This document shows positions 29,769 through 61,668 of a stretch of DNA of 64,000 nucleotides, one piece after another. Source of the DNA: an uncultured delta proteobacterium (GTDB lineage: Bacteria > Desulfobacterota > Binatia > JACPRU01); the NCBI GenBank assembly GCA_963745025.1, contig CAVUWD010000016.1:288001-352000 (forward strand), read 5' to 3'. Below the pieces are notes generated by a model. That model saw only the letters and a program-made list of their open reading frames with translations, did not search any database and was not told where the DNA came from. Position numbers and translations under genes: made by a program. Position 1 is the first letter of the stretch. Every line of letters begins with the position of its first letter.

Positions 29769-29777
29769 TTAAGTTTT

Positions 29778-31106: not shown

Positions 31107-31191
31107 CAGGGAGCGTGAGCAGCCTGCTGCACGTCGCGAAATAAGCGGTGCCACCAGGTGCGCGGGAGATGAGAGGAGCGCGAACACTCCG

Positions 31192-34107: not shown

Positions 34108-34137
34108 AGTGCGCGGCGATTTCGCAAACGCCGTTTC

Positions 34138-34984: not shown

Positions 34985-35390
34985 CTGACCCGTCGCCGGG
35001 CGAAGACGTTCTCGTCTTGGCCAACGCCCTGTTGCAAAGGTACTCCACCGAGACCGGAAGAAAGATTACCGGCTTTGATCGATCGGCGCTTGAGGCCCTG
35101 AGGACCTACGGATGGCCGGGGAACGTTCGCGAGCTCGAAAACCGGGTCAAACGAGCGGTGATCATGGCGGAACGAAGAAGAGAGTGGCTCCGGCCGACCT
35201 CGAGCTCGACTCGCCGTTCGAGAAGTATCAAGGGAAGCGGCTTCGCGAGGCTCGCGAGGCTCTCGAAAGAGAGATCATCGAGAAAGCGCTTGCGAAGCAC
35301 GGCGGCAACATCACTCACGCCGCGACCGAGTTGGGAATAAGCCGCCCCACGCTGCATGACCTGATCAACAAATATTCCATCGTGATTTAG
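34985..35390 (+). pseudogene. C-terminal remnant of a sigma54-dependent activator (PrsR/NtrC-like)
   Basis: WPGNVRELENRVKRAVIMAE, frameshift, then Fis-HTH GGNITHAATELGISRPTLHDLINKY; no receiver or GAFTGA region. Confidence 0.85.
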
Positions 35391-35422
35391 AGAATGGCGA
35401 CCCGAGCACTTCTGTGCCGAGC

Positions 35423-35643
35423 TGTCGATAATCCTTACAATTCGACATACGTTTCCGAACTTTAGGATCAAGACAAACGTTTTCGCGCCGTTGCGATTTT
35501 GCTCATCTCGGCCAAAGCCCCGTAGGCCCTCGGATCGTCGGAAATCTTTACGGTTACGCTCATTCGTACGGGATGATCAATCACGAAAACGTGGGATATT
35601 TCCATCATTTCTCGTCCTCGGCTCGACCTGGACCAATTCTTGG
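35423..35643 (+). promoter_or_regulatory. Candidate PEP-CTERM enhancer boxes and degenerate sigma54 promoter
   Basis: TGTCGATAATCCTTACA at 35423, GTCGGAAATCTTTACG at 35537, TGGACCAATTCTTGG (GG-N10-GG) at 35629. Confidence 0.45.
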
Positions 35644-35681
35644 AGGAGAACTCGGGTATGATGTCTTCTTAGGAGCGAGGA

Positions 35682-36413
35682 ATGAGACTAGTCAAATTTG
35701 TTTCGGCAGGAGCATTCGCGCTGACAATGGCCTTAGGGCTGTCTACGGCCCAGGCCACCGCGATCACCTTCACCGCGAGCGGCACCGGTTCGGACGGGGC
35801 GCTGTCCGCGAGTGCCCTATTCACGACAACTGCCGGCGAGGTCGACGTGACTCTGACGAACCTTCTGGGCGCGAACGTGATCCGGAGCGCCGGGCAGGCA
35901 CTGAGCGACATCACGTTTACCCTGAGCAATACCGCAGGGACGCTCGGTACGACGTCGGCTTCCGGGCAGCTCGGCAACATCTCGGGTATTGTTCCACCTG
36001 GCGGAGGCACGGTGACCTATACGTCCGGCGACCCCACACGCTGGCTGGGTGCTGGGGGCCAGGGTGACTTTAGCGTCGTTGGAGACACCGTTACGCTTGA
36101 GGCGATCGGCGGCGGGAAGCCGAGCCAAATGATCATCCCATTCCAAGTGGATGGAGGCGCGTACTCGAACGTGAACCCCGGGTTCGACAACTTCAACCCC
36201 TACACGATCGGCCCGGCCACCTTCAGTCTCCACCTCTCGGGCGTAACGGCGGCCACGACCATCACGTCGGCGACCTTCTCGTTCGGGACCGGGCCTGACA
36301 CTTTCTTGAGCGGTACGCCTGGGGGAGTGGCGCCCGAGCCAGGGTCGGTATTTCTCCTTGGGTCAGGTTTAGCGGCACTTGGGTTGTTCCGCTGGCGTCG
36401 TCATAGCCCCTGA
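35682..36413 (+). CDS. PEP-CTERM sorting-domain surface protein
   Basis: Signal peptide ending AQA, Gly/Ser/Thr-rich body, C-terminal APEPGSVFLLGSGLAALGLFRWRR. Confidence 0.95.
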   Translation: MRLVKFVSAGAFALTMALGLSTAQATAITFTASGTGSDGALSASALFTTTAGEVDVTLTNLLGANVIRSAGQALSDITFTLSNTAGTLGTTSASGQLGNISGIVPPGGGTVTYTSGDPTRWLGAGGQGDFSVVGDTVTLEAIGGGKPSQMIIPFQVDGGAYSNVNPGFDNFNPYTIGPATFSLHLSGVTAATTITSATFSFGTGPDTFLSGTPGGVAPEPGSVFLLGSGLAALGLFRWRRHSP

Positions 36414-48408: not shown

Positions 48409-49641
48409 ATGGAAGCCCTCTACATCGTCGGCGTCGGCATGACGCGCTTCGGGAAGCTGCTCGAGCGTTCGGTGAAGGATCTCACCCGCGAGGCGGTGAC
48501 CGCCGCGCTCCGCGACGCCGGCTGCTCCGTGTCGGATCCTGAAGCGGCGTATTTTTCCAACGCGTGTCAGGGGCACATGCAGGGCCAGGATCTGATCCGC
48601 GGTGAGATCGCGCTGCGATCGATGGGCATCGAGGGAATCCCCGTGACCAACGTCGAGAACGCCTGCGCGAGCGCGAGCACGGCACTTTATGGGGCGGTGC
48701 AATTTCTGCGCGCGGGTATGGGCGAGATCGCGCTCGCCGTCGGCGTAGACAAGATGTACTCGACGGACCGCGCGAAGATGTTCAGCGTGTTCGACAGCGG
48801 GTGGGACGTGGAGACGGTGGAGGAGAACCGGCAGCGCTTGCTCGCTCTCGGGGCGGGTGTCCCGGTTCCCGAGGGCACGATGTCGACGCGACCGTACAGC
48901 GCGATGATGGACGTGTACGCCGCGTGGGCGCGCTTTCACATGCGCACGTTCGGGACGACGCGGGAACAAATCGCCGCGGTCGCGGCCAAGAACCACCAGC
49001 ACTCGACGGAGAATCCTCTCTCGCAGTACCGCGAGGCCTACAGCGTGGAAGAGGTGCTGAGGGCGCCGCCGATCACCTATCCTTTGACGCTGCCGATGTG
49101 TGCGCCGATCAGCGACGGCGCGGCGGCGGCGGTCATCGTCCGCGAGAGCGTGCTCGGGCGCTTTGATCGGCGCCGTGCGATCAAGATTTGCGCGTCGGTC
49201 TTGATGAGCGGCACAGACCGGCGGCCCGAGGAGGTCGAGAAGCACATCGGGCGCCGCGCGGCGTTGAAGGCCTACGAGCAAGCGGGAGTCGGCCCTCGAG
49301 ACATGTCCCTCGCCGAGGTGCACGACGCGACCGCGATGGGCGAGATCATTCAGATCGAGAACCTCGGCTTCTGTCCCTTTGGCGAGGGGGGGCCGACGGC
49401 CGCGCGCGGTGAAACGCGGATCGGCGGGCGCATTCCCGTGAACCCCTCCGGCGGCCTCGAATCGAAGGGACATCCGATCGGCGCCACGGGTCTTGGCCAG
49501 GTCTTCGAACTCGCGACCCAGCTCCGCGGTGAGGCGGGCCGGCGACAGGTCGAGAATGCGCGCTTCGCGATCGCCGAGAACGGCGGTGGCATCTACGGCA
49601 TCGAGGAGGCCGCCTGCTGCGTCACGATCTTGGGGGGCTGA
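48409..49641 (+). CDS. SCP2/SCP-x type thiolase
   Basis: VENACAS, SDGAAA, AEVHDA, NPSGGLESKGHPIGATG. Confidence 0.92.
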   Translation: MEALYIVGVGMTRFGKLLERSVKDLTREAVTAALRDAGCSVSDPEAAYFSNACQGHMQGQDLIRGEIALRSMGIEGIPVTNVENACASASTALYGAVQFLRAGMGEIALAVGVDKMYSTDRAKMFSVFDSGWDVETVEENRQRLLALGAGVPVPEGTMSTRPYSAMMDVYAAWARFHMRTFGTTREQIAAVAAKNHQHSTENPLSQYREAYSVEEVLRAPPITYPLTLPMCAPISDGAAAAVIVRESVLGRFDRRRAIKICASVLMSGTDRRPEEVEKHIGRRAALKAYEQAGVGPRDMSLAEVHDATAMGEIIQIENLGFCPFGEGGPTAARGETRIGGRIPVNPSGGLESKGHPIGATGLGQVFELATQLRGEAGRRQVENARFAIAENGGGIYGIEEAACCVTILGG

Positions 49642-50290
49642 GGCGTCGCCTGCCTCCCGGTCGCGAGCGCGCGTCGTTGGGTGGCAACAAGCCGTGCTCG
49701 ACGATGTCGTAGAACTCGGCGAAGGCCTGGCTCATCGTCAGCCCGACCCGCGCGAGCATTTCCGGGTCGACGAGCTGCGCGACCACGTTGAGCATGACCT
49801 CGGCGATGAGCTTCGCGTGGACGCCGCGAAAGTGCCCGCGCGTCGCGCCGTCATGGATGAGCCGCTCGAGGCCCGCGATCCGCTCCCGTTGATGGCTCAT
49901 CAGGCGCCGATGCGTGGCCGGAAAACGCGATAGATCGCGCACGAATTGCGCTCCGGCGTCGCGCGTGGCGATGATCGCGGCACCGAGGTAACCGGTGAGG
50001 GCGGCAAATGGATCCGTGGCCGCCGCGGCGGCGGCCACGCCCGCGCGCCGAAGCTTGGCGAGCCAGCGCTCGACGACGAGCTCGAAGAGCTTTTCGCGGC
50101 TCGGCGCGAGCTGATAGAGGGCGCGCTTGGAGCAGTGCAGCCGGCGCGCCAGCTCCTCGGTGCGGAAGTGCAGGAAGCCGTCGCGCAGGAAGACGTGCTC
50201 GAGCTCCTCGAGCAGGCGCTCCAAGCGTGGCGAAGCGAGGCGCAGGACAGGGACTGGCTTGGATGAGGAAGATTTCGCTTGACGCTGCAT
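49622..50290 (-). CDS. TetR/AcrR family regulator (copy 1)
   Basis: HTH FLRDGF....EELARRLHCSKRALY.....EKLF; divergent from apcA. Confidence 0.88.
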   Translation of the reverse strand: MQRQAKSSSSKPVPVLRLASPRLERLLEELEHVFLRDGFLHFRTEELARRLHCSKRALYQLAPSREKLFELVVERWLAKLRRAGVAAAAAATDPFAALTGYLGAAIIATRDAGAQFVRDLSRFPATHRRLMSHQRERIAGLERLIHDGATRGHFRGVHAKLIAEVMLNVVAQLVDPEMLARVGLTMSQAFAEFYDIVEHGLLPPNDARSRPGGRRRLSPPRS

Positions 50291-50300
50291 GAAAACCCGT

Positions 50301-50326
50301 GGTACCGGGTGCGAGATCATAGTACC
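50301..50326. promoter_or_regulatory. Candidate TetR operator
   Basis: GGTAC-N16-GTACC between tetR1 and apcA; similar site at 60235-60260. Confidence 0.5.
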
Positions 50327-50364
50327 GGAGGATCCGAGGGGTCAAGCGACGAGGGAGACGCTTC

Positions 50365-52293
50365 ATGGCTTGGATGGTGACCATCGACAACGGCTCGACC
50401 TTCACCGACGGCTGTCTGCTCGCCGACGGCGAGCTCTCGACCGTGAAGGTGCTGACGACGCCGTACGACCTGATGCGCTGTTTCGTCGACGTGTTCAAAG
50501 GCCTGGCGCGCGAAGCGGGCCTCGCCTCGGAGAGCGAGCTGCTGCGCCGCGTCGAGGAAGTGCGCTACTCGACGACCTCGGGAACCAACGCGCTCTTGGT
50601 GCGCAAGGGCGTTCGCGTAGGCGTCATCACGGGCCCGGACGGAACGGCCGACCTCTACGGGTTGCGTCGCACCGACCCGAGCCTCGTCGATGCGCTGGTG
50701 GGCGACCGGGTCGTCGCCTACGTCGTCGGTGAGGGCCTGGCGCGCGACGTCGACGACCGCATTCTGCCCCCGATCCGCCAGCTGCTCGCGCGCGGCGCGC
50801 AGTGGATCGTCGTGTCCTTGCCCGAGCCGTGGGGGGCGCGCGCCGAGCGCGACTTCAAGCGCAGCCACATGAAGCTTCTTCCCGGGCACCTCCTCGGCTC
50901 CGTGCCCGTGCTCTATTCGCGCGAGATCTGCGCCGATCCGGACGACGCGCGGCGCACCGCCACCGCGATCCTCAACGGCTTTCTGCACCGCGAGATGGCG
51001 CGGTTCCTGTACCACGCCGAAGCGTGGGTGCGGGACCACCACGTCGCCCAGCCACTGCGAATCATGCGCAACGACGGCGCTTGCGGACGCGTCGCCAAGA
51101 CCACCGCGGTCAAGACGCTCGACTCGGGCCCGATGGGCGGCCTGGCGGGTGCCGCGGCACTTGCCCGCATTTCTGGCGAGAGCAAGCTGGTGACGCTCGA
51201 CGTCGGGGGCACGAGCTCCGACATCGGTGTGATCGACGGCGATCGCCCGGCATTCGATCTCTTCGGGTCGGTGCACGGACTGCCGCTGTCGTTCTCGTTT
51301 CCCCAGCTGCGCACCGCCGCGCTCGGCGGGGGGTCGCTGTTCCGGGTCGAGGGGGGAGCGATTCGTATCGGTCCGGAGAGCGCCGGGGCGCTGCCCGGAC
51401 CGGCGTGCTTCGGCCGCGGTGGCAACGAGGCCACGCTGACGGATGCTGCGTTGATCGTCGGCTATCTCGATGCCAAGCGCTTCGCGGCCGGCGCCATCGC
51501 GCTGCGTACGGAGCTCGCCGCCAAGGCGATCGAAGAGCGCATCGCCAAGCCGCTCGGCCTTCAAGGCGCGAGCGCCGGGGCGGCGGCGATGATCGAGGCC
51601 TTCGCCGACCGGCTCGCCGCGGAGGTGTCACTCGTGCTCGGCCGGCGTGGCTGGAAGCCCGCGGACACCGCGCTCGCCGTGTTCGGTGGGTCGGGGCCGC
51701 TGCTGTCCTGCCTCGTCGCCGACCGCATGGGGCTTCGGCGCGTGATCGTCCCGCCCGCCTCGTCGAGCTTCAGCGCCCTCGGCGTCGGCTTCAGCGAGCT
51801 CGCCCACGAGTACCGGGCGCTGCTGACGGGTCCGGTAGCGGCGGACGCCTGGCGGATGGTCGTCGAGGAGCTCCGCGAGCGCGCGCAGCGCGACATGTTC
51901 GGGGAGGGCGTGGAAGGCGTGGAGTGCCGCGTGACGATGCGCGCTCGCGATGAGGACGGTGGCGCGGAGCATGCCGTATCGGATTCCCGCGACCCGCCGG
52001 AATCGCTGCGCGCCGGCAAGGGCCGCTTCGCGCTCGATTACCGCCTCGGCGTGACGGGGAGTGGCCGCAAGGAATTTCCGCGCTGGGCTGCTGAGGGAGC
52101 GCGAGCGGAGCATGCCGGCGAGCGGATCGTGCTCGTCGGACGAGAGACCAGGAGCGTACGGGTGCTCGACGCCGGCGCGCTCGGCGGAACCGTGAGCGGG
52201 CCGTGCCTGCTCGAGACGCCCTTCTGGAGCGCGGTCGTTCCAACCGGTTGGAACGTGGCCGAGACGGGATATGGGCTCCGACTGAACCGATAG
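50365..52293 (+). CDS. apcA: Hydantoinase A/oxoprolinase-family ATP-binding subunit (acetophenone carboxylase-like, first ATPase subunit)
   Basis: IDNGSTFTD, STTSGTNAL, SGPMGG, DVGGTSSD, GPESAGALPGPAC, TDA, SFSALG. Confidence 0.8.
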   Translation: MAWMVTIDNGSTFTDGCLLADGELSTVKVLTTPYDLMRCFVDVFKGLAREAGLASESELLRRVEEVRYSTTSGTNALLVRKGVRVGVITGPDGTADLYGLRRTDPSLVDALVGDRVVAYVVGEGLARDVDDRILPPIRQLLARGAQWIVVSLPEPWGARAERDFKRSHMKLLPGHLLGSVPVLYSREICADPDDARRTATAILNGFLHREMARFLYHAEAWVRDHHVAQPLRIMRNDGACGRVAKTTAVKTLDSGPMGGLAGAAALARISGESKLVTLDVGGTSSDIGVIDGDRPAFDLFGSVHGLPLSFSFPQLRTAALGGGSLFRVEGGAIRIGPESAGALPGPACFGRGGNEATLTDAALIVGYLDAKRFAAGAIALRTELAAKAIEERIAKPLGLQGASAGAAAMIEAFADRLAAEVSLVLGRRGWKPADTALAVFGGSGPLLSCLVADRMGLRRVIVPPASSSFSALGVGFSELAHEYRALLTGPVAADAWRMVVEELRERAQRDMFGEGVEGVECRVTMRARDEDGGAEHAVSDSRDPPESLRAGKGRFALDYRLGVTGSGRKEFPRWAAEGARAEHAGERIVLVGRETRSVRVLDAGALGGTVSGPCLLETPFWSAVVPTGWNVAETGYGLRLNR

Positions 52294-52303
52294 GAGGCGC
52301 CGC

Positions 52304-52663
52304 ATGCAAGTCGTCATTACCGAGTACCTCGAGATCGAGCTCGAGCAGGAGCGCTGGCGTTGCCGGCGCTGCCAGCACGACCTCGGCTCCGCGCGGGACA
52401 ACTACAAGCGTGGCCTGCTGGTCCACGACCGCGATCCCAAGGAGATCCACCGTCCGATCATCGATCCGAAGAAGTATCGCTACACGTTCGCGCCGGATTC
52501 GAAATGGTGCCGGATCCTCGAATACTACTGCCCGGGCTGCGGGGTGCAGATGGAGACGGAATACCTGCCCCCAGGCCATCCACCGACCCACGACATCGAG
52601 CTCGACATCGACGACTTGAAGCGGCGCTTCGCCGGCAACGCGGAGAAGATCGAGAGAGCGTAA
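52304..52663 (+). CDS. apcB: Acetophenone/acetone carboxylase small Zn-binding subunit
   Basis: TEYLEI, CRRC, NYK.G, EIH, EYYCPGCG..METEYLPPGHP..DIELDID. Confidence 0.9.
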   Translation: MQVVITEYLEIELEQERWRCRRCQHDLGSARDNYKRGLLVHDRDPKEIHRPIIDPKKYRYTFAPDSKWCRILEYYCPGCGVQMETEYLPPGHPPTHDIELDIDDLKRRFAGNAEKIERA

Positions 52664-52688
52664 AGACGTAGACGGAAGGAGAGCGCGC

Positions 52689-54821
52689 GTGCGTCGACTA
52701 TCGATCGACATCGGTGGAACGTTCACCGATTGCTTCCTCGAGTGGGATGGCCGTCACATCGAGGCCAAGGCCCTCACCACTCACCACAACCTTTCGCTCG
52801 GCTTCCTCGAGGCGGTCGGCCGTGCGGCCGAGGACGCGGGCAAGACACCGGAGAGCGTCCTGTCCTCGGTCGATTCGGTCCGCTACGGGACGACGCTCGG
52901 CACGAACGCGCTGATCGAGCGCAAGGGGCCGCGGATCGGCGTGCTCGTCACCGCCGGCTTCGAGAGCGGCCTCCGCCTGTCGCGCGGGCGCGGTTACGGC
53001 GAGGGCCTGCCGCGCCACCTACAGGTCGATCTCGGGCGGGCGACGCGCCCGGATCCTTTGGTGCCGAACTCGCTGGTCGTCGGCATCCAGGAGCGCATCG
53101 ATTTCCTCGGTGAGGTGGTGATCCCGATCAACGTCGAGGACGTGCGCACGAAGATTCGCCGTCTCGTCGACAACGGCGCTGAAGCGTTCGTGATCTCGCT
53201 GGTGAACTCGGTCGTGAACGACAAACACGAAGAGATCGTCGAGCAGGTGATCCGCGACGAGTACCCGTCGAGCCTGCTCGGGTCGTTTCCGGTCATTCTC
53301 TCGCATCGCATCTCGCGCCGCAAATCCGAGTACGCCCGCACGATGGCGGCGGTGATCTGCGGCTATCTCCACGAGCACATGTTCTACTCGCTCGGTACCC
53401 TCGAGGACGCGCTTCGTGAGCGCGGTTACCAAAAGCCGGTTTTGCTGATCCACAACACGGGCGGCATGGCGGCTCTCGAGTCGACCCACGCTCTCCAGAC
53501 CATTCACTCGGGTCCGGTCGCCGGTCTGGCAGCCTCGCAGCACCTGACGCGGGAGTACGACATCCCGCTGATCATCGCGACCGACATGGGCGGTACGTCG
53601 TTCGACATCGGCATCATCGAGCGAGACGGCACCTGGATCTACGATTTCCATCCGGTCGTCGATCGCTGGCTGGTGTCGACGCCGATGGTCTATCTGCAGA
53701 CGCTCGGCGCCGGCGGCGGATCGATCGCGCGCTATGATCGCTTATGGCGCTCGGTCGAAGTGGGACCGGATTCCGCCGGGTCGGATCCGGGCCCCGCCGC
53801 GTACGCCCGCGGCGGAAGCCGGCCGACGGTGTCCGACGCCGACCTCGTGCTCGGTTACCTGAACCCCGAATACTACGCCGACGGCACGATCCCCCTCGAC
53901 GTCTCATTCGCCGAGCTGGCGATCGAAGAACACGTCGCGGAGCCGCTCGGCATCTCGGTCCTCGAGGCCGCGAAGCTCATCAAGCGGAAGGTCGACGCGA
54001 ACATGGCCGGCGCGATTTTCAAAGAGGTTGCGACGCGAGGCTTCGACCCGAAGAACCTGAAGCTCCTGTCCTACGGCGGCGGTGGTCCGGTGCACTGCTG
54101 TGGATTCGCCCGCGCCCTCGAGGCCAAGAGCGTGCTCGTGCCGCCGTTCGCCTCCGTGTTCTCGGCGTTCGGCGCCGGCAATCTCGGGCAGCTGCACATC
54201 CACGAGCGCTCCGCGTACCTGGTCGTCTACAACCCGCTCACCCGCCAGATGACGCTCGACATCAGCATCGTGAACGGCATGATCGACGAGCTCGAGCAGC
54301 TCGGACGCGACGACCTCGTGCGGCAGGGCTTCCAGCCGAAGGACGTTCAGTATCAGGTCGAGTTCGACATGCGCTACGGAAACCAGCTCGTCCAGCTCTC
54401 CGTGCTGTCCCCCGTCAAGAGACTGAAGGACATCGACGACGTGCTGGCGATGATCGAGGTCTTCAGCAAGACGTACGCATCGCGCTTCGGCGCGAAAGCG
54501 TCGGCTCCGGAAGCCGGCATCAAGATCATCGCGGTGCGCGTGCTCTCCTGGGTGCCCGCGGAGAAGATCCCGCTCGCCGGCCACAACGGAGCGAAGGAAT
54601 ACAAGCCGAAGGCGAGCGGCTCCCGCACGTGCCACTTCTGGACGGAGGAGCAGCCGATCGATACGCCGATCTATCGCTGGACCGACATGAAGGCCGGCGC
54701 CGTCGTCGACGGGCCCGCCATCGTCGAATCCCCGCACACCACGTTCGTCGTCGAGTCGGGCTGGGACTTCCACCTGGGCTCCGCGGGCGAAGTGTGGCTG
54801 AACGACATCACGAAGAAGTAG
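52689..54821 (+). CDS. apcC: Hydantoinase A-family ATP-binding subunit (acetophenone carboxylase-like, second ATPase subunit)
   Basis: IDIGGTFTD, GTTLGTNALIER, SGPVAG, DMGGTSFD, GAGGGS, SAGSDPGP, YGGGGP.H. Confidence 0.85.
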   Translation: MRRLSIDIGGTFTDCFLEWDGRHIEAKALTTHHNLSLGFLEAVGRAAEDAGKTPESVLSSVDSVRYGTTLGTNALIERKGPRIGVLVTAGFESGLRLSRGRGYGEGLPRHLQVDLGRATRPDPLVPNSLVVGIQERIDFLGEVVIPINVEDVRTKIRRLVDNGAEAFVISLVNSVVNDKHEEIVEQVIRDEYPSSLLGSFPVILSHRISRRKSEYARTMAAVICGYLHEHMFYSLGTLEDALRERGYQKPVLLIHNTGGMAALESTHALQTIHSGPVAGLAASQHLTREYDIPLIIATDMGGTSFDIGIIERDGTWIYDFHPVVDRWLVSTPMVYLQTLGAGGGSIARYDRLWRSVEVGPDSAGSDPGPAAYARGGSRPTVSDADLVLGYLNPEYYADGTIPLDVSFAELAIEEHVAEPLGISVLEAAKLIKRKVDANMAGAIFKEVATRGFDPKNLKLLSYGGGGPVHCCGFARALEAKSVLVPPFASVFSAFGAGNLGQLHIHERSAYLVVYNPLTRQMTLDISIVNGMIDELEQLGRDDLVRQGFQPKDVQYQVEFDMRYGNQLVQLSVLSPVKRLKDIDDVLAMIEVFSKTYASRFGAKASAPEAGIKIIAVRVLSWVPAEKIPLAGHNGAKEYKPKASGSRTCHFWTEEQPIDTPIYRWTDMKAGAVVDGPAIVESPHTTFVVESGWDFHLGSAGEVWLNDITKK

Positions 54822-54833
54822 CCGGAGGATTCC

Positions 54834-57062
54834 ATGGCCGCTGAGAAGAGCAAGCTCGACAAGTTCCTCGAGGATACCGTCGTCTTCCTCGGACCGGATC
54901 GCGAGATCCTGAAGGATCATCGCCTCGCCCCTCGCGACGAGCGCGAGGAGCGCGTCATGCGGGAGCACAAGGATCCGCACAAGATCAGCCTGATTCGGGC
55001 GAAGCTCGAAGTGCTCGCGGAAGAAGCCTTCGATCAGCTCGAGCAGACCGGCGCGGCGGCGGGTGCAAAGTGGGGAGACCTGATTGCCGGCGTGTTCACG
55101 GCATCGGGCGACCTCGCGCAGGCGTCGACGGGCGGCGTGCTGATCTTTTCGGTCGTCTGCCAGCCGGTGCTCCGCTACATCAACAAGTACTGGGGAAGCG
55201 AGCCGACCGTGGGGATCAGGCCCGGCGACGTCTTCATGTCGACCGACCCGCGCTACGGCAACATCCACACCCCCGACCAGAACACGATCCTGCCGATCTT
55301 CGACGACGAGGGGAAGCTCGTGCTGTGGGTCGTCGTGATCGTGCACGAGGGCGAGAACGGCTCGGTCGAGCCGGGCGGCATGCCCTCGGCCGCCGAGTCA
55401 CCGTACATGGAGGGCATCCGCATGCCTCCCTGCAAGGTCGGCGAGAACTACGAGTACAAGAAGGACTGGGTCACGTATCTGCAGAACAGCGTGCGCGATC
55501 CGATGCTGCAGGTGCAGGACATGAAGGTCCGGCTCGCCGCCTGCCTGAAGATGCGCGAACGCATCAAGGACATCGCGAAGGAATACGGCTGGGACGCGCT
55601 CGCCTCGACGCTTCGCTGGACGCTCGAGGATACCGAGGCCGAGGTTCGTCGGCGTCTCCGGGCGTGGCCGGAGGGCGTGGTGCGCTCCATCGCGTGGACC
55701 GACTCGACGCTGCGCGAGAACGCACTCATCAAGATCTCGCTCGAAGCCAGGAAGAAGGACGACGAGCTGATTCTCGACTTCCGGGGCACGAGCCCGCAGT
55801 TCGTGAACCGCTCGATCAACACGCAGCTGCACGCGCTGAAGGGCATGCTCGCCCAGGTGTTCCTGACGTTCGTCTGGCCCGATCTGCCGCGCAATCAGGC
55901 GGTGTTCGCGCCGATGCGCCTGATGAGCGACTGGGGTTCCGCGCTCGATTCGACGCCGGAGGCGCCGAACGCGCAGAGCATGATGACGTTCTTCCCGGGC
56001 TTCACGGCGCTTCAGATGTGCGTGTCGAAGTTCCTCTATCCCACCACGACGCGCTACACGAAGATCCTCGCGCCCTGGTACAACATGATCACCACGTTCA
56101 TCTACGGCGGCGTGAACCAGTACGGTGAGACCGTCGGCAACCTGTGCGCCGACCTGAACGGCATGAGCGGCGGGGCGCGCGAGGACCAGGACGGCGAGCA
56201 CTCGATCGCGCCGATCTTCGCGGCCATGACCGACCTCGGCGAGAGCGAGATCCTCGAGGAAGAGACGCCGATCGTCAAGATCGTCCCGAACCGGCTGCTC
56301 GAGGACAACCAGGGCTTCGGCAGGTTTCGCGGCGGCAGCGGCTACCAGGTGATCGGCACCGTGCGCCGCTCCGACATGTTCGGCTTCATGACGACGTGCA
56401 CGGGATCGAAGTTCCCGACCACATACGGTCTCTACGGCGGATACGGCGCGCCGTCGTACCCGCTCTGCAAGATCAAGGGAGTCAACGCGTTCGAAACGCT
56501 GAAGGACCTGCCGGAAGCGGAGTGGACGATTCCCGGCCTGATGAACGGTCAACCGTTCGAGGGCGCGAAGTACTCGACGCACCACATGGGCATGCAGTTC
56601 GAGATCGTGAAGCAGGGCGAGCTCTACATGATCTGCCAAGGGGCGGGCGGGGGCTACGGCGATCCGCTCGAGCGCGATCCCGAGGCGGTCACGCGCGACC
56701 TCCGAGACGGGCTGATCTCGGGCCGCACCGCCAAGGAGCTGTACTTCGTCGCCTATGACGAGCGCACGCTCTCCGTCGACGCGGAGGGTACCGAGAGGCT
56801 TCGCCAGGCCGAGCGCGAAGCGCGGAAGAAGCGCGGCAAACCGTTCGACGCGTTCGTCAGGGAATGGGTCAAGCCGGAACCGCCGAAAGACCTGCCGTAC
56901 TACGGCCCGTGGGGCGACCGCGAGGAGATCTACCTCGGCAGTCCGGACAACAAGGTGGCGCGCGGCACCTGCCTGGGGATCACCATGACCGATCCTCGCG
57001 AGGTGCGGATCGCCGAGCTCGAGAAGAAGCTGCGCGATCTCGGCGTCGAGCTCGCGCTATAG
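54834..57062 (+). CDS. apcD: Hydantoinase B-family metal-binding catalytic subunit (acetophenone/acetone carboxylase-like)
   Basis: HTPD (HxxD) and VHEGE candidate metal ligands, EG.RMPP, G.GRFRGG, GAGGGYGDPLERDP. Confidence 0.85.
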   Translation: MAAEKSKLDKFLEDTVVFLGPDREILKDHRLAPRDEREERVMREHKDPHKISLIRAKLEVLAEEAFDQLEQTGAAAGAKWGDLIAGVFTASGDLAQASTGGVLIFSVVCQPVLRYINKYWGSEPTVGIRPGDVFMSTDPRYGNIHTPDQNTILPIFDDEGKLVLWVVVIVHEGENGSVEPGGMPSAAESPYMEGIRMPPCKVGENYEYKKDWVTYLQNSVRDPMLQVQDMKVRLAACLKMRERIKDIAKEYGWDALASTLRWTLEDTEAEVRRRLRAWPEGVVRSIAWTDSTLRENALIKISLEARKKDDELILDFRGTSPQFVNRSINTQLHALKGMLAQVFLTFVWPDLPRNQAVFAPMRLMSDWGSALDSTPEAPNAQSMMTFFPGFTALQMCVSKFLYPTTTRYTKILAPWYNMITTFIYGGVNQYGETVGNLCADLNGMSGGAREDQDGEHSIAPIFAAMTDLGESEILEEETPIVKIVPNRLLEDNQGFGRFRGGSGYQVIGTVRRSDMFGFMTTCTGSKFPTTYGLYGGYGAPSYPLCKIKGVNAFETLKDLPEAEWTIPGLMNGQPFEGAKYSTHHMGMQFEIVKQGELYMICQGAGGGYGDPLERDPEAVTRDLRDGLISGRTAKELYFVAYDERTLSVDAEGTERLRQAEREARKKRGKPFDAFVREWVKPEPPKDLPYYGPWGDREEIYLGSPDNKVARGTCLGITMTDPREVRIAELEKKLRDLGVELAL

Positions 57063-57065
57063 GCA

Positions 57066-57836
57066 ATGCTCGACGGCCAGCAACGCTCCGTTTGGCTGCG
57101 CGTCGCTGCGGGAATCGAGACGCTCTCGGGCCTCGGCCGAAGTGTCTGGAATGAGCCGGCGGCAGGCCGCAACGCGCTACGTGAGCTACTGTCGGTCTTG
57201 CCGCTGACGCACGTGCAGGTCGACCTCGCGGCTCTACGCGGACGGAGCGATCCCGCGGCCGATTGGAAGGCCGTGTTGTCGCGAGCCGCCGACTGGGCGG
57301 ACGTGCTCCGCGAAACCGCCGCGGCGATGGCGGACGCGGTGCGCGGTCGCGCCGTCTGGGGTCTCGGCATGCCGAGCCCGGCCGCGGTCGCCGAAGATCT
57401 CGGCGACTCGAGCGAGCGCGGCGTGCTCAAAGCGGGTCTGCAGCTCGCGGGCTTCCTGCAGGGATTTCGCGAAGCGGGGCTCGCCTTCGTCGCGCTCGAC
57501 CTCACCAGCGGCGCCGTGGCGGACAAGGCGGTCGCTCCCCTTCTGCGCAACGCCGAGCTGTACGGCTGGCGGCGCGCCGTCGTGCTCGGGGACATCGCAC
57601 AGGCGAGCGCCGGGGCAGAGATCCGTCTCGCCGCCGGGCAAGACTATCAAACGCTGACCGGTGCCTGGGAGCGGGGCGAGCTCATCGGCGGCGGTCTCGA
57701 CGGGGCGTTCTGGGCCGGCCAGCCGCCACCGCGGCCGGCACCGGCGCGTGCGCTCCTCTTCGGCGCGATCCCCGCAGGCCTCGAAGCCGCCGCGATCGTC
57801 GCCGCCGGGCGAAGCCTGCAGGCGTGGATGGCGTGA
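57066..57836 (+). CDS. apcE: Putative ApcE-like accessory subunit
   Basis: Fifth gene of the operon, between apcD and the CoA ligase as in Aromatoleum; PSP, FL..F, P...AE.Y.W and G.IP pattern recalled from ApcE-like proteins. Confidence 0.6.
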   Translation: MLDGQQRSVWLRVAAGIETLSGLGRSVWNEPAAGRNALRELLSVLPLTHVQVDLAALRGRSDPAADWKAVLSRAADWADVLRETAAAMADAVRGRAVWGLGMPSPAAVAEDLGDSSERGVLKAGLQLAGFLQGFREAGLAFVALDLTSGAVADKAVAPLLRNAELYGWRRAVVLGDIAQASAGAEIRLAAGQDYQTLTGAWERGELIGGGLDGAFWAGQPPPRPAPARALLFGAIPAGLEAAAIVAAGRSLQAWMA

Positions 57837-57840
57837 GCGG

Positions 57841-59451
57841 ATGCTGAGCCTGCCGACCGAACGCTGGACACTGGTCGAGCTCGCGCGCCGCCAAGCCGAG
57901 AGCTACGGCGAGCGCGAATTCATGCGCTTCGAGGACGGCACCGCGCTCTCCTTTGCCGAGCTCGACCGTCGCAGTACGCGCCTCGCCCATGCGCTCGACG
58001 CGCTCGGGCTCCGCCCGGGCGATCGTCTGCTCGCGCTCTTGCTGAACGGTCCGTCGTTCCTGCCGCTGCTGCTCGCGACCAACAAGGTCGGGGCCGTCTT
58101 CGTGACGGTGAACACGGAGCTCAAGGGGGCATTTCTCGAACACCAGCTCCGCAACAGCGGCCCGCGCATCGTCGCCGTGGATCGCGAGCTCGCCAAGGCG
58201 TTCTCGGGAATCGACCTCGCGGGAGTCGAGTCGGTCCTCCTCGTCGGCGACGGCGGGCCGGGCGTCGAGGCGCTCGAAGGTCCTCGGCTTCTCGACCTCG
58301 ACGCGCTAGAGAGTCCGATCGAGAATCCAAACCCCCTCGTCGAGCCTCTCGCGCGGGACATCGCGACGGTGATCTACACTTCCGGCACGACGGGCCCCTC
58401 GAAAGGCGTGCTCATGCCGCACGCGCACGCCTACCTGATGGGCTACACGCTCGCGCGGCGGCTCGCGATCACCGAGGACGACCTCTACTACGTCTGCATG
58501 CCGATGTTTCACTCCAACGCTCTGTTCATGCAGACGATCGGCAGCTTGATCGCCGGCGCGCGTGTGTTCGTCGTGCGACGCTTCAGTCCATCGCGCTGGC
58601 TCGAGGACGTCCGGCGGACGGGAGCGACGTTGACGAACGGCCTCGGCGTGATGCCCGAGTTCATCTTCCGCCAGCCCCCGAGCGACAACGATCGCCGTCA
58701 CCGCCTGCGCGCGATGATGGCCGTGCCGATCGCCGCCGAGTGGGGACGCGCATTCGAGGAGCGCTTCGGCGTGCCCCTCGTCCAGGGGTACGGCATGACG
58801 GAGATCAACATCGTCGCCTACACGGCTCCCGGAGATGGCGTGGAGCCCGGCTGCGCCGGCCTCGTCCTCGAGGAGTTCTTCGACTTGAGACTCGTCGACG
58901 GCGAGGATCGCCCGGTGCCGGCCGGCCAGACGGGCGAGATCGTCGTACGGCCGAAGCGACCCTGGTGCTTCATGGCGGGGTATCAGCGAATGCCCGAGAA
59001 GACCGTCGAGGCGTGGCGGAACCTGTGGTTTCACACGGGCGATGCGGGGCGTTTCGATGCGCGCGGCCGGCTCTTCTTCGTCGATCGCATCAAAGACTGC
59101 ATCCGCAGACGCGGCGAGAACATCTCGTCGTTCGAGATCGAGCAGGTCATCGGCTCGCATCCGGAGGTCGCCGAGTGCGCGGTCGTGGCCGTGAAGGCGA
59201 CCGACCAAGGTGGGGAGGACGAGATCAAAGCCTGCGTCGTGGTCAAACCAGGCGCGGTGCTCGCCGCCGAAGCGCTCCTCGATCATTGCCAGGAGCGCAT
59301 GCCGAGGTTCGCCGTGCCGCGCTTCGTCGAGTTCGTCACCGCGCTGCCGAAGACCGCCACGGGAAAGCTGCAGAAGGAAGAGCTACGGCGCCACGGTAGA
59401 ACCCCCTCGACGTGGGACCGAGAATCGGTCGGATACGTCGTGCGGCGCTGA
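57841..59451 (+). CDS. Acyl-CoA synthetase (CaiC-like; positional analogue of benzoylacetate-CoA ligase)
   Basis: YTSGTTGPSKG, GYGMTE, FHTGD, DRIKD.IRRRGENISS.E, LPKTATGK. Confidence 0.92.
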   Translation: MLSLPTERWTLVELARRQAESYGEREFMRFEDGTALSFAELDRRSTRLAHALDALGLRPGDRLLALLLNGPSFLPLLLATNKVGAVFVTVNTELKGAFLEHQLRNSGPRIVAVDRELAKAFSGIDLAGVESVLLVGDGGPGVEALEGPRLLDLDALESPIENPNPLVEPLARDIATVIYTSGTTGPSKGVLMPHAHAYLMGYTLARRLAITEDDLYYVCMPMFHSNALFMQTIGSLIAGARVFVVRRFSPSRWLEDVRRTGATLTNGLGVMPEFIFRQPPSDNDRRHRLRAMMAVPIAAEWGRAFEERFGVPLVQGYGMTEINIVAYTAPGDGVEPGCAGLVLEEFFDLRLVDGEDRPVPAGQTGEIVVRPKRPWCFMAGYQRMPEKTVEAWRNLWFHTGDAGRFDARGRLFFVDRIKDCIRRRGENISSFEIEQVIGSHPEVAECAVVAVKATDQGGEDEIKACVVVKPGAVLAAEALLDHCQERMPRFAVPRFVEFVTALPKTATGKLQKEELRRHGRTPSTWDRESVGYVVRR

Positions 59452-59473
59452 GCCGGGCGAGTTCGTGACAACT

Positions 59474-59523
59474 CCCCCTCACCCGGCCTTCGGCCGACCT
59501 CGCCCCAACGGGGGGTAGAGGTG
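59474..59523. repeat. CIR/RPE-like palindromic repeat
   Basis: CCCCCTCACCCGGCCTTCGGCCGACCTCGCCCC...GGGGG.AGAGGT double hairpin between convergent genes. Confidence 0.6.
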
Positions 59524-60210
59524 AAAAGACTGGCCGGCGCGTGCTCCACGGGGTGAGCCTCGAGCGCCGCCGGACCGGCGTCGCTCCGGCCGTGTCGGCT
59601 CGCTCTCCGGGTGGAGGAGGCCGTGGCGCAACAGCCGCGACAGCTCGGCGTAGGCTTCGGTCATCGAGAAATTGGCGGCTACGAGAAAGTCCGGCTGAGA
59701 GACGCGTCGGTAGGCATGGGTGAAGACCTCCGCGACGAGATACGGATCGAGCCCGCGAAAGACGCCATGACGAGTCCCGTCGACGACGATCTTGCGGACA
59801 CCTTCCATGCGCCGTCGCTGGTGGTCATCGAGCATTCGCTTGGCGGGCAAGAAGCCGGCGATGTCGCTGAACAGGATGTTGCGCGTCCGCGCGACCTCGC
59901 GGATTCCTGGCGCGAGATAGGCCTCGATACGCGCGGCGGGGTCAGGGGCTGCTGCTGCTGCGGCCTCCCCCTGGCGGCGGATGCGCTCGAGAAAGCGGTC
60001 GAGGACCATCAAGAACAAATCCTCCTTGCTCGCCGCGAGCTCGTAGAGCGTGCGGCGCGAGCAGCGGAGGCGGGCGGCCAGGTCGCCGACGCTGACGCGT
60101 CGAAAGCCCTCGGTCAAGAAGATCTCTTCGATCGTGTCGAGCGTCCGCGCCGCGCGAGACGCGACCAACGACAGGCGCGGAGAGGAGGGAAGGGATTTTG
60201 CTCTTGCCAA
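59479..60210 (-). CDS. TetR/AcrR family regulator (copy 2, paralog of 49622-50290)
   Basis: FLTEGF....GDLAARLRCSRRTLY.....EDLF; shared G.FRG...L.AEV and HGLL; start uncertain. Confidence 0.87.
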   Translation of the reverse strand: MARAKSLPSSPRLSLVASRAARTLDTIEEIFLTEGFRRVSVGDLAARLRCSRRTLYELAASKEDLFLMVLDRFLERIRRQGEAAAAAAPDPAARIEAYLAPGIREVARTRNILFSDIAGFLPAKRMLDDHQRRRMEGVRKIVVDGTRHGVFRGLDPYLVAEVFTHAYRRVSQPDFLVAANFSMTEAYAELSRLLRHGLLHPESEPTRPERRRSGGARGSPRGARAGQSFHLYPPLGRGRPKAG

Positions 60211-60403
60211 GGTCGTGCGGTCCGTGGTACGGCCGGTACCAGTTTTCGGTAAGTGATACCAGACGATCGTCGTACGAGCCCACGCCATTGCCCACGAATC
60301 CGCGCCCGCGCGATGCTGTCGCGGAGCGAGCACGAGACGAGCTTCATCGAGGTGATCAAAGGCGACGGGCAATGATGCGGATGGATCTGAGGGAGATGAG
60401 CAC

Positions 60404-60472
60404 CGGCTACCGGCAACAGGAAAGGCGCCGCTAAGGCTTTGCCGGTAGCCGGAAGTCGGTAGCCGGAAGCCG
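60404..60472. repeat. Heptamer-unit palindromic intergenic repeat, copy E
   Basis: CGGCTAC CGGCAAC AGG...CCGGTAG CCGGAAG TCGGTAG CCGGAAG CCG. Confidence 0.75.
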
Positions 60473-60493
60473 AACTCGCATAGGAGGTACATC

Positions 60494-61330
60494 ATGAAAT
60501 TTCTCGAAGTCTGTGGTCTTCGCCGCAGCATCCGCATCTTCGATCGCAAGAAGCCGGTCGACCGGCAGCAGATCCAGCGAATTCTGGAGGTGGTGCGGGT
60601 GGCGACGACCTGCCCCGGAAACCTCCAGCCGTGGCGCGCAATCGTCGTTGACCAAGACAAGCTTGCGGCTGCCGACCGCAAGACGTTGCTCGCCGCCGAC
60701 AATTACCAGGCGGCCCATGCCCAGGCCCCGATCTGGATCTACTGGTGCGCCAATACGGATTCGGCGCGTCCGGAATCCTTCCGCATCCGGGTCCACGAGC
60801 TCATCGACGTCGGCGCAATGCCGACCTACTACGGCTGGACGCACGAGACGGTCGACGGCTCGATTCTGCGCGGTGAGATCGCACCCGAGGGAATGGCCAA
60901 CATCGAGCAGATCATCCACGGAATGCCTGCCGAAATGAGCGCGATGATCGCGAGGCAGGAAACCGTCGGCGCCTGCGCGGTCGCCGTGCTGGCCGCCGTG
61001 AACGAGGGGCTCGGCACGTGCCTCCACGCCTGCCACGGCGCCGACAAGATCGAGGACGTGCGCCGCGTGTTGAAGCTCCCCGAATCGTGGAACACCATCT
61101 GGGTGCAGCTGATCGGTCATCCGTTGGAGGACCGTGAAGCCGGCGGACAACGGCCCCGGCTGCCGTTCGGCGAGCTCTTCTTCGAGATGGATCCGACTCG
61201 TCCGTTCGTGCGCGACGAGACGGTGGTGAAGGATCTCGAGCGCGAAGGGTTGTTTCGGGCGCCGAGCCCGAAGCCCGGACGCTTTGAGGAGCTCATGCAG
61301 ATCGGGCGGAAGCTCGGCTATCCGATCTGA
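60494..61330 (+). CDS. Nitroreductase family flavoprotein
   Basis: AGGAGG RBS; RRSIR.F, PGNLQPW, LAAVNEGLGTC, IG.P. Confidence 0.88.
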   Translation: MKFLEVCGLRRSIRIFDRKKPVDRQQIQRILEVVRVATTCPGNLQPWRAIVVDQDKLAAADRKTLLAADNYQAAHAQAPIWIYWCANTDSARPESFRIRVHELIDVGAMPTYYGWTHETVDGSILRGEIAPEGMANIEQIIHGMPAEMSAMIARQETVGACAVAVLAAVNEGLGTCLHACHGADKIEDVRRVLKLPESWNTIWVQLIGHPLEDREAGGQRPRLPFGELFFEMDPTRPFVRDETVVKDLEREGLFRAPSPKPGRFEELMQIGRKLGYPI

Positions 61331-61344
61331 ACCCGGGCCCTGCC

Positions 61345-61668
61345 ATGAACGATCTTCGGAGCTACGCTTCCGTCACGCGATGGATCGACAACGTGAACCG
61401 CTACTACCAGCTTCCCGAGAGCGAGTGGGTCGACCGACTCGCGGCGCTACGCGTCTTCTGTGAGCAGGTGGGCAAGGACCCCGACGCCGTGATCCGCTCC
61501 GCCGTCGAAGAGAAAGGGGCAAAGGTCGAGATGATGCGCCGCTCGAAGCAGATCGCCAAAGAAGCGACCCGCGATGCGCGCGCCGCTCATGATCAGGACG
61601 GCTTCGTGCGCAGCTTCTTCATCCACAACGGCGCACGGGTGGTGGTCCGGCCCTACGAAGAGGAATGA
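61345..61668 (+). CDS. Hypothetical protein co-transcribed with the nitroreductase
   Basis: ATG 14 nt after the upstream stop; protein-like composition (FCEQVGKDPD, RSFFIHNG). Confidence 0.7.
   Translation: MNDLRSYASVTRWIDNVNRYYQLPESEWVDRLAALRVFCEQVGKDPDAVIRSAVEEKGAKVEMMRRSKQIAKEATRDARAAHDQDGFVRSFFIHNGARVVVRPYEEE

Follow-up and report, generated by a model that had tools for sequence, protein, structure and literature searches.

A putative five-subunit ketone carboxylase operon with its own CoA ligase, and a predicted epsilon-alpha' contact, in an uncultured Binatia bacterium

What does a run of five carboxylase-like genes followed by a CoA ligase do in a bacterium of the uncultured Binatia, and which ketone, if any, does it serve? 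The genes lie in a stretch of 64,000 nucleotides (contig CAVUWD010000016.1 of assembly GCA_963745025.1, positions 288,001 to 352,000), which we refer to as the window and number from its first letter. By means of ATP-dependent ketone carboxylases, inorganic carbon can be fixed on chemically inert ketones; to our knowledge few of these enzymes have been characterized: Acx, Apc and, since 2026, Acr. A first-pass annotation, made from the letters of the window, had read the genes as a candidate new ketone-carboxylation pathway arranged like apcABCDE and the ligase that follows it. Every gene that it named was found in its place by an open reading frame (ORF) listing and by Pfam and NCBIfam searches, and the order apcABCDE plus ligase was confirmed by the order of the genes and by their one-to-one best matches to the subunits of acetophenone carboxylase (Apc).

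The operon comprises six plus-strand genes (50365-59451) with gaps of only 10, 25, 12, 3 and 4 nt: the core genes A to D, a fifth gene for a 256-aa protein, and the ligase. On sequence it very probably encodes an ATP-dependent, biotin-independent, five-subunit (heterodecameric) ketone carboxylase of the Apc/Acr type that works together with a CoA ligase. For the substrate class the balance is about even that it is an aliphatic or otherwise hydrophobic ketone larger than acetone, and not acetophenone. To the explanation as a whole, comprising enzyme class, operon logic and substrate class, we assign a probability of roughly 55%.

The five subunits and a predicted contact between two of them

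The first mark of the five-subunit class is the gene order alpha'-gamma-alpha-beta-epsilon (PMC5214803), and this is the order in the window. Another is a gamma subunit that is short, about 50 residues under Acx gamma, with four conserved cysteines. The protein encoded by B has 119 aa as compared with 129 aa in Apc beta and 168 aa in Acx gamma, and it carries two CxxC pairs, C20/C23 and C76/C79, which presumptively form a Zn-Cys4 site; a Zn-Cys4 gamma subunit has been described as specific to the Apc and Acx carboxylases.

Support for the assignment of the core subunits can also be found in their solved relatives, the best of which is in each case a chain of Apc: 5l9w_b (Apc alpha) for A, with 288 bits versus 133 for Acx and 166 for caprolactamase 6YRA; 5l9w_C (Apc beta) for B, with 134 bits versus 43 for Acx gamma; 5l9w_B (Apc gamma) for C, with 537 bits versus 321 for Acx beta and 279 for 6yra_A; and 5l9w_A (Apc delta) for D, with 303 bits versus 133 for Acx alpha and 93 for 6yra_B. 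The scores of A-D to the chains of 6yra and 7hk5 were lower than those to Apc. Similarly, the best NCBIfam models for all four are Apc models, and the large subunits give secondary matches to caprolactamase models.

Both ATPase subunits have the three ASKHA motifs described as PHOSPHATE 1, PHOSPHATE 2 and ADENOSINE (GxxPGP) (PMC5214803): DNGSTFTD, DVGGTSSD and GALPGP in A, and DIGGTFTD, DMGGT and GSDPGP in C. By analogy, A is presumed to be the bicarbonate kinase and C the ketone kinase. At the position of the alpha-specific motif R/KERiDsxG, C carries QERIDFLG, with Q replacing R/K, and A is without such a motif; the strict pattern matched only the Neorhizobium C subunit among six sequences scanned. 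In D the motifs H145-x-x-D148 and H171-E172 are present, and where the Xanthobacter acetone carboxylase has its Mn ligands E89, H150, D153 and H175 (PMC5543143), the alignment puts D82, H145, D148 and H171. The label of HxxD/HE metal subunit that D had been given is therefore correct.

Is the fifth ORF a gene at all, and if so, is it an epsilon subunit? It matches no Pfam or NCBIfam family, and the codon-position G+C of its frame (0.79/0.56/0.83) is compatible with coding without being decisive; what settles it as a real gene is homology, since 72 homologues were found at 49-90% identity, all of them unnamed or "hypothetical". An AlphaFold2 model, built on an alignment of 28 of these homologues with 40 invariant columns (A1), is a (beta/alpha)8 barrel with a mean pLDDT of 93.5 and a pTM of 0.90, and its top fold match is the crystal structure of ApcE, 9FOU, for which our literature search found no descriptive paper. 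At the level of single sequences, phmmer of the 256-aa protein against the PDB returned noise only.

The connection to known epsilon subunits was made through intermediates. Searching 1.84 billion representatives with the A1 profile found 71 proteins, from which we took an alignment of 45 distant full-length relatives of 260-300 aa (A3); A1 and A3 match each other over 247 columns (99.7%, E 1.8e-26). The A3 hidden Markov model (HMM) in turn matches the fifth genes of the five-gene operons of Neorhizobium petrolearium (4e-48), Rhodococcus jostii RHA1 plasmid pRHL2 (7e-43) and Halorientalis marina (1e-19), each annotated as "hypothetical protein" right after the beta subunit, and also a "uroporphyrinogen decarboxylase family protein" within a Haloterrigena operon (4e-8). 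A3 is further linked (92.6%, E 4.7e-7) to the family of an ApcE-like protein encoded in a paralogous cluster of the same genome (A2; NF042977 E 2.8e-6, Pfam URO-D 8.4e-7), an alignment that is shallow because the homologue search gave only five proteins, and one of 48 distant relatives of the 256-aa protein (P0097) matches the ApcE model in NCBIfam at 3.8e-5. The A1 HMM itself reaches the Neorhizobium epsilon subunit only at 1.4e-5 and misses that of RHA1, and the AcrE HMM of the Acr authors matches the Neorhizobium epsilon at 1e-75 (PMC13677872, supplement). That the link to ApcE is transitive agrees with their statement that epsilon subunits fall into groups with little or no pairwise identity yet have a common origin (PMC13677872, sections 2.5 and 2.6). 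A profile search of the ORF against ApcE had been suggested at the outset; the direct match failed, and the transitive profile link, the fold and the complex model described below all favored the relationship. As judged from profiles and modeling, the 256-aa protein is indeed an epsilon subunit, one of the divergent members of an Acr-epsilon/Apc-epsilon superfamily.

Where might such a subunit act? It has been proposed that alpha' and epsilon act together (PMC5214803). The sole pairing that we modeled was that of A (alignment A4, 5 rows) with the 256-aa protein (A1), and the model therefore speaks to binding and not to a preference of epsilon for alpha' over the other subunits. The complex model scored 0.76 and the best of three controls 0.00; among solved complexes 116 of 157 score at least this high, and among mismatched pairs 2 of 215, a calibration that is only rough with self-built alignments, so that a pass supports binding without showing it. 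Three runs share at least 96% of their contacts, with a partner pLDDT of at least 90. On alpha' the interface is made up of residues 12, 29-35, 38-39, 79, 341-344 and 350-353, of which 341-344 fall in the GALPGP adenosine motif. On the epsilon side the predicted contacts include residues 30-44, 83-94 and 241-246, and a hand check found 8 of 23 interface residues to be at least 90% conserved as compared with 73 of 256 overall; there is therefore no clear enrichment of conservation and we make no claim from it. In the model, then, epsilon docks on alpha' beside the nucleotide cleft, in agreement with the published idea, and if this is true the predicted docking would be the first concrete structural hypothesis for a subunit that is essential and unexplained.

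Other epsilon-like genes were seen in the same genome, whose contigs we number with the letter C (the window is on C16). About 30 kb past the window end, a paralogous cluster (L019, C16:381000-396000) has the order A-B-epsilon-C-D; its epsilon is ApcE-like, and after the cluster come an AMP ligase (39% identity to that of the window) and an O-methyltransferase. L019 faces a divergent gene for a 918-aa molybdopterin oxidoreductase, and the cluster would suit an anaerobic route from hydroxylase to ketone to carboxylase. An orphan Acr-epsilon-like gene at C2:157115-158587 (L022, ~5.7-6.6 kb; A3 HMM 2.3e-79) adjoins a Zn-alcohol dehydrogenase gene and an SDR fragment, far from the carboxylase clusters; it could serve a C11 cluster that is without epsilon, or belong to a contaminant contig.

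Relatives of the enzyme and its possible substrate

To which of the known carboxylases is the enzyme most closely related? A maximum-likelihood tree of beta subunits was built from 23 rows: the window, seven Binatia sequences, ten paralogues from the same genome and five plasmid sequences. It contains a Hyd branch (three rows, 100/100), an Acx-type branch (four rows, 100/99) and a four/five-subunit group of 16 rows, the support of which (80/69) is below the star threshold of the tree. The window and the seven Binatia rows hold together at 100/100 and are part of a 13-row clade (100/99) with Neorhizobium, Cupriavidus, RHA1, Halorientalis and a C11 paralogue. The top-scoring paralogues on the ApcD model, C12 (637 bits) and C16b (375 bits, as compared with 319 for the window), belong to another clade, with Haloterrigena. 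In a collection of plasmids, the nearest annotated relatives of D were from Neorhizobium petrolearium (51.8% identity) and Cupriavidus necator N-1 (49.3%), with Rhodococcus jostii RHA1 and DK17 at 45.7% and Halorientalis marina at 45.0%; identities to Neorhizobium and RHA1 are 40 and 38% for A, 56 and 66% for B, and 53% to both for C. The beta-subunit tree and the seven putative pocket positions considered below together place the enzyme, as far as sequence can, with the Acr-type carboxylases and not with Apc, the hydantoinases or three-subunit Acx.

Acr, a carboxylase of acetone and aliphatic ketones with five subunits, comes from Rhodococcus aetherivorans (Muller, Kahnt, Paczia, Heider 2026, PMC13677872); the same paper (October 2026) describes five-gene ketone carboxylases as widespread in Actinomycetota and Pseudomonadota and present in some Bacillota. 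The premise of the first-pass annotation that acetone carboxylases have three subunits is outdated by the characterization of Acr and, because the window enzyme belongs to an Acr-like clade, the words "new ketone-carboxylation pathway" overstate what is here. The annotation had also allowed for a grouping with hydantoinases or oxoprolinases; in the beta-subunit tree the window groups with neither.

Like Acr and the operons related to it, the window has five genes in the order alpha'-gamma-alpha-beta-epsilon, the last for a protein of about 260-275 aa; identities were measured to the related operons (Neorhizobium, RHA1). The likeness to Acr-type operons extends to a beta subunit in one clade with those of Neorhizobium, Cupriavidus N-1 and RHA1 and to an epsilon that is homologous by profile-profile comparison; the window differs from them in its Binatia lineage, in an AMP-forming ligase in place of CoA-transferase genes, and in its TetR regulator. 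On the Halorientalis marina plasmid NZ_CP095488.1 (L026) an AMP-binding ligase, alpha'-gamma-alpha-beta, a 295-aa epsilon and a thiolase are likewise found together, the thiolase-domain gene being 38% identical to the thiolase of the window. That operon, however, is archaeal, has its ligase upstream (29% identical) and its thiolase with an OB-fold partner, and is likewise uncharacterized. AcxABC of Xanthobacter autotrophicus (5SVB/5M45) is from the same superfamily and its Mn-ligand positions align with the beta subunit of the window, but it is without alpha' and epsilon; canonical AcxABC was rejected as an identity for the operon on its five genes, including these two, and on the length of gamma (119 aa versus 168 aa).

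The paralogous cluster closest to the operon (L020, C11:360000-375000; D 46% and B 64% identical) has its own TetR and ligase, and its genes A and C are each in two reading frames, from frameshifts or assembly errors.

What, then, is the ketone? Indirect evidence comes from seven positions of the Apc alpha subunit that its source paper tentatively assigns to the pocket (L81, F281, N282, P285, I333, Q344 and T345, or L-F-N-P-I-Q-T). Their equivalents in the window are T72, I272, H273, P276, V324, Y335 and L336. All seven Binatia rows read T-I-H-P-V/I-Y-L, Neorhizobium and RHA1 T-I-H-P-I-H-L, and Halorientalis T-M-H-P-I-Y-M. By this alignment the pocket is Acr-like with one consistent change, H to Y: Y335 is found in all seven Binatia rows as opposed to H in Neorhizobium, RHA1, Cupriavidus and the C11 paralogue, and Halorientalis has Y at the same position. 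Acr accepts ketones from acetone to 2-hexanone and not acetophenone (PMC13677872, section 2.3). The suspicion of the first-pass annotation that the substrate may not be acetophenone was probably right, because only one of the seven putative positions matches Apc.

The ligase offers a second line of evidence. Its best NCBIfam model is PRK06155 (553.7 bits against a cut-off of 722), with long-chain ligases also among the best models; its best PDB matches are 8weu and 8wev (218 bits each; fatty-acyl-CoA and feruloyl-CoA synthetase), and within the genome the paralogue most similar to it (39%) belongs to the ApcE-type cluster. It is presumed, from sequence, to be a beta-keto acid-CoA ligase. An acetoacetyl-CoA synthetase was considered and rejected: on the model for that enzyme, TIGR01217, the ligase region scores 31.5 and 26.6 bits against a cut-off of 520.9.

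The alternative that survives best is a plain Acr-type acetone/butanone carboxylase, by which acetone would become acetoacetate and then, through the ligase, acetoacetyl-CoA. The identity of the core subunits to those of Neorhizobium petrolearium and R. jostii RHA1, and their common clade, speak for it, as do the putative pocket positions, six of seven of which are identical to those of Neorhizobium and RHA1. In Neorhizobium the operon is followed by CoA-transferase A/B genes, and such genes are a mark of acetone use (PMC13677872, section 2.5), so that acetone or butanone stays among the candidates. We nevertheless think this alternative rather unlikely. The gene next to the window carboxylase is an AMP-forming ligase of the PRK06155/long-chain type and not a 3-oxoacid CoA transferase, its score on the acetoacetyl-CoA synthetase model is negligible beside the cut-off, the tyrosine at position 335 sets the Binatia apart from Neorhizobium, RHA1, Cupriavidus and the C11 paralogue, and for acetone the genome has another possible means in its four three-subunit Acx-type clusters. 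In addition, the most distant relatives of the locus (L014 and L018) have a DUF1329 gene directly upstream of A, which in L014 is preceded by a DUF1302 gene. The type of the ligase, the contrast with the CoA-transferase genes of Neorhizobium and these DUF1302/DUF1329 neighbors favor a larger hydrophobic ketone.

A true acetophenone (aryl methyl ketone) carboxylase paired with a benzoylacetate-CoA ligase, in the manner of apcABCDE-bal, appears quite improbable. Apc-Bal of Aromatoleum aromaticum EbN1 (5L9W, 9FOU; PMC5214803) does have the same gene order, including the ligase after the fifth gene, and both systems have a short four-cysteine gamma, two ASKHA ATPase subunits and a TIM-barrel epsilon; Apc chains are, moreover, the best solved relatives of A-D, and ApcE is the top fold match of the fifth protein. 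However, when the NCBIfam equivalogs for acetophenone carboxylase in the strict sense (NF042960, NF042974, NF042975, NF042976 and NF042977) were applied, the scores were 336.2 against a cut-off of 1250 for A (ApcA), 159.5 against 250 for B (ApcB), 566.2 against 1500 for C (ApcC) and 319.2 against 1500 for D (ApcD), and the ApcE model gave no match. Six of seven putative pocket positions differ from Apc, and the window lies outside the clade of the top ApcD-model scorers C12 and C16b. No ebd or ped genes are nearby, and no gene for an ethylbenzene or phenylethanol dehydrogenase was found within the window. Acetophenone carboxylase in the strict sense was rejected on the sub-cut-off scores of A-D, the missing ApcE-model match and the single identical pocket position.

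Least probable is an ATP-dependent amide hydrolase of the hydantoinase, 5-oxoprolinase or caprolactamase type that fixes no bicarbonate, which the Hydantoinase_A/B Pfam domains of the large subunits and their secondary caprolactamase-model matches might suggest, but the cluster has a Zn-Cys4 gamma, a second ATPase subunit and an epsilon, its scores to caprolactamase, oxoprolinase and N-methylhydantoinase chains are well under those to Apc, and the three Hyd-type paralogues of the genome form their separate 100/100 branch; a two-subunit HydAB-type enzyme was rejected on the gamma subunit and on that branch.

Conservation of the locus, its regulators and its surroundings

Is the arrangement in the window an accident of one genome? 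Scanning genome contigs with A1 gave nine loci, all from metagenome-assembled genomes and labeled Candidatus Binatia, Binataceae or "Deltaproteobacteria/delta proteobacterium". D precedes the epsilon gene in all nine and a ligase follows epsilon in seven, and the arrangement is therefore not due to chance. A TetR1 homologue stands beside the operon in each of the five loci that reach far enough (L010, L012, L013, L014 and L018). The TetR-ABCDE-ligase core is conserved in Binatia metagenome-assembled genomes; the thiolase and the second TetR are not. Both had been counted as parts of the module, but among the Binatia loci the upstream thiolase, accompanied by a luciferase-like monooxygenase and a globin, is confined to the window and its 93%-identical relative L010, and TetR2 has this position in the window and L013 alone. 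Of the solved structures, SCP2-thiolase type 1 (6hsj, 240 bits) is closest to the thiolase, which we consider a candidate beta-ketoacyl-CoA thiolase and an accessory neighbor. The features of the locus are listed in Table 1.

Table 1. Features of the carboxylase locus, with positions in the window
Feature	Position	Strand	Basis
SCP2/SCP-x-type thiolase, 410 aa	48409-49641	+	Pfam Thiolase_C_1 9e-38, Thiolase_N 1e-20
TetR1, divergent from operon	49622-50320	-	TetR_N, TetR_C_27, TetR_C_24
Candidate TetR1 operator	50300-50330	.	TGGTACCGG-N11-TAGTACCGG
A, alpha' subunit, ApcA-like, 642 aa	50365-52293	+	Pfam Hydantoinase_A 2.7e-67
B, gamma subunit, ApcB-like, 119 aa	52304-52663	+	Pfam Acetone_carb_G 4.7e-40
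C, alpha subunit, ApcC-like, 710 aa	52689-54821	+	Pfam Hydantoinase_A, Hydant_A_N, Hydant_A_C
D, beta subunit, ApcD-like, 742 aa	54834-57062	+	Pfam Hydantoinase_B 1.4e-78
Epsilon subunit (by profile and model), 256 aa, URO-D-like TIM barrel	57066-57836	+	No Pfam/NCBIfam family
AMP-forming acyl-CoA ligase, 536 aa	57841-59451	+	Pfam AMP-binding 1.3e-67, AMP-binding_C
TetR2, convergent with ligase	59479 to ~60210	-	Pfam TetR_N 8e-8
Candidate TetR2 operator, palindrome TGGTACGGCCGGTACCA	60225-60241	.	Upstream of TetR2
Nitroreductase-family protein, 278 aa	60494-61330	+	Pfam Nitroreductase 1.9e-13
107-aa protein	61345-61668	+	ORF; matches no Pfam/NCBIfam family

TetR1 has a TetR_N match (E 1.2e-4, 22.2 bits) just below the 24-bit cut-off as well as TetR_C_27 and TetR_C_24 matches, and its likely true start is the ATG at 50290, which gives 222 aa; TetR2 has a TetR_N match of 32.4 bits (cut-off 24) and an uncertain start, TTG at 60210 or 60168. 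The two are 38-39% identical over 170 aa, which bears out the description of them as paralogous TetRs bracketing the operon. In the intergenic region between TetR1 and A is the motif TGGTACCGG-N11-TAGTACCGG, with two GTAC cores 20 bp apart in direct repeat; a promoter-like site on the minus strand, TTGACC-18-TATGAT, overlaps it. Scanning the same region for inverted repeats found nothing. An exact 9-mer of this candidate operator occurs three times in the 64 kb, two of them upstream of the two TetR genes, and the pattern TGGTAC...AGTACCG recurs in the corresponding intergenic region of L010, L012 and L013 and, more loosely, of L018. The palindrome upstream of TetR2 has a GGTACC core in common with the TetR1 site. 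From these sequence features we infer that both sites may function as operators.

As to expression, short contigs from RNA libraries (four runs, three studies), which may contain DNA, lie on the operon; among them are mismatch-free pieces that run across B/C (52577-52743) and C/D (54728-54889). Between 18 and 29 of 30 bins are covered, according to the run, partly by contigs from relatives, and uncovered bins are without meaning. Terminator-like sites in the region 48-62 kb (10, with 6.7 +/- 2.5 expected) were uninformative.

Downstream of the ligase a nitroreductase-family gene is found in L010, L011, L012 and L013, followed by the 107-aa gene in L010, L012 and L013, and L011 ends inside the nitroreductase gene. 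The 107-aa protein, which has no Pfam or NCBIfam match, accompanies a nitroreductase-family gene wherever it was seen, and the pair recurs at C16:33703-34848. Elsewhere in the genome the nitroreductase has three paralogues at 32-35% identity and a broken copy on C8; besides the one in the pair, paralogues are at C16:62082-62855 and C16:1019873-1020658. Individual loci have features of their own. In L014 (12556-14787) a second full-length beta copy, 72% identical to D of the window, comes right after the ligase and is sister to the first copy of that locus in the beta-subunit tree; in L013 (11169-12656) a 495-aa PaaK-like AMP-binding protein (AMP-binding_C_2) is encoded between TetR2 and the nitroreductase-family gene; and in L012 a GST gene adjoins TetR1 directly.

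The genome that contains the window has 5.6 Mb in 20 contigs and is 92.65% complete with 7.6% contamination; the G+C of the window is 61-70% in 2-kb bins, and the wider flanks of the operon include the housekeeping genes valS, nadC, birA and groEL. Eight genes for an acetone-carboxylase-gamma subunit are present in the genome, in four four-subunit (Apc/Acr-type) and four three-subunit (Acx-type) clusters on contigs C6, C11, C12, C13 and C16, in addition to three two-subunit hydantoinase-type pairs. Among 41 genomes sampled, five of seven relatives from the same family have 2-5 gamma genes and most others 0-2. In a class-level sample the 256-aa protein has a match (E <= 1e-10) in 14 of 401 genomes, including six of the seven other genomes from the family of the window; we preferred this to a phylum sample, in which the only match among 401 genomes at E <= 1e-20 was the genome of the window itself, because the latter contained few close relatives. 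Near-identical DNA, with about half of the sampled words in common, is present in bog, sediment and soil metagenomes from many studies. A search of the literature on acetophenone carboxylase or acetone carboxylase found no mention of Binatia in the papers that it listed, and "Binat" and "Deltaproteobacteria" are absent from one supplement file of PMC13677872, other files of which, e.g., the gamma-homologue table, could list such genomes.

Away from the operon, a tRNA gene (29685-29768) comes just before an integrase fragment on the minus strand (29778-30353), after which is a stretch to about 36400 with few convincing ORFs and an unusual G/C skew of 0.186 in 30001-32000; the whole of 29685-36400 is probably an integrated element or its remnant. 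At 15212-17747, beside genes for HlyD-like and outer-membrane-factor proteins, the gene for an AcrB-type RND transporter is split into three or more ORFs (Pfam ACR_tran positions 69-249, 491-578 and 666-889) and is either a broken gene or one affected by assembly frameshifts.

A proposed route and what it would mean for the Binatia

If we assume that the operon works as Apc and Acr do, then alpha (gene C) would phosphorylate the enol form of the ketone and alpha' (gene A) would phosphorylate bicarbonate; the TIM barrel of epsilon, docked on alpha' near the nucleotide cleft, would be required to unite the two activated species, and beta (gene D, with its His/Asp/His metal site) and the Zn-Cys4 gamma (gene B) would make up the core. 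The co-transcribed AMP-forming ligase would turn the resulting beta-keto acid into a CoA thioester, which would then be thiolysed, in the window strain perhaps by the upstream SCP2-type thiolase. TetR1 may repress the divergent promoters via the GTAC-core operator until the substrate or an intermediate appears. A narrower version, in which a Binatia-specific branch of the enzyme, with its own ligase and as one of eight clusters, handles medium-chain, branched or alicyclic hydrophobic ketones and has epsilon docked as modeled, is put forward tentatively, and we would not be surprised to see it fail in some part.

Several points weigh against the explanation that we prefer, a five-subunit carboxylase for a hydrophobic ketone larger than acetone. 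Carboxylation is deduced from homology alone; all four core subunits are far under the NCBIfam Apc equivalog cut-offs; and the tree is without true Apc, Acr or Acx sequences, its clades being named by proxies (NCBIfam scores and the PMC13677872 supplement). For the fifth protein the link to ApcE is, on sequence comparison, transitive and not direct: no PDB sequence is matched by the A1 profile at E up to 10, A1 and the ApcE-like A2 reach only 0.3% in hhalign, and the ApcE model NF042977 (cut-off 450) does not match the protein in NCBIfam at E up to 1. Regarding the substrate, the pocket assignment is tentative at its source, Neorhizobium combines six of seven identical pocket positions with CoA-transferase genes, and the role of DUF1302 and DUF1329 in the uptake of hydrophobic compounds is presumed from general background. 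Finally, the ligase is absent downstream in L017 (2.7 kb of downstream sequence) and none was seen in L015 (1.1 kb), the thiolase is not conserved with the module, and the RNA-library contigs, being possibly DNA, are a hint of operon expression and no proof of transcription.

Since both the class of enzyme and its wide distribution have been published, this locus does not overturn current knowledge. What is new is a Binatia lineage for the five-subunit type, a very divergent epsilon subfamily, not recognized by any model in the copies of Pfam and NCBIfam that were searched, the pairing of an Acr-like core with an Apc-style CoA ligase under putative TetR control, and a concrete model of a predicted epsilon-alpha' contact that can be tested. 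The locus also defines a gene set for expression and substrate screening and a candidate repressor-operator pair that may be usable as a ketone biosensor.

What were the ketones that made such an operon worth keeping? If the explanation is right, they may be those that arise, for example, from sub-terminal oxidation of alkanes or from oxidation of isoprenoids. The eight gamma-subunit genes of the genome suggest that ketones are an important substrate class for the family to which the window belongs and, if this is true, ketone carboxylation would be a major route of carbon entry in an uncultured lineage of soils and sediments.

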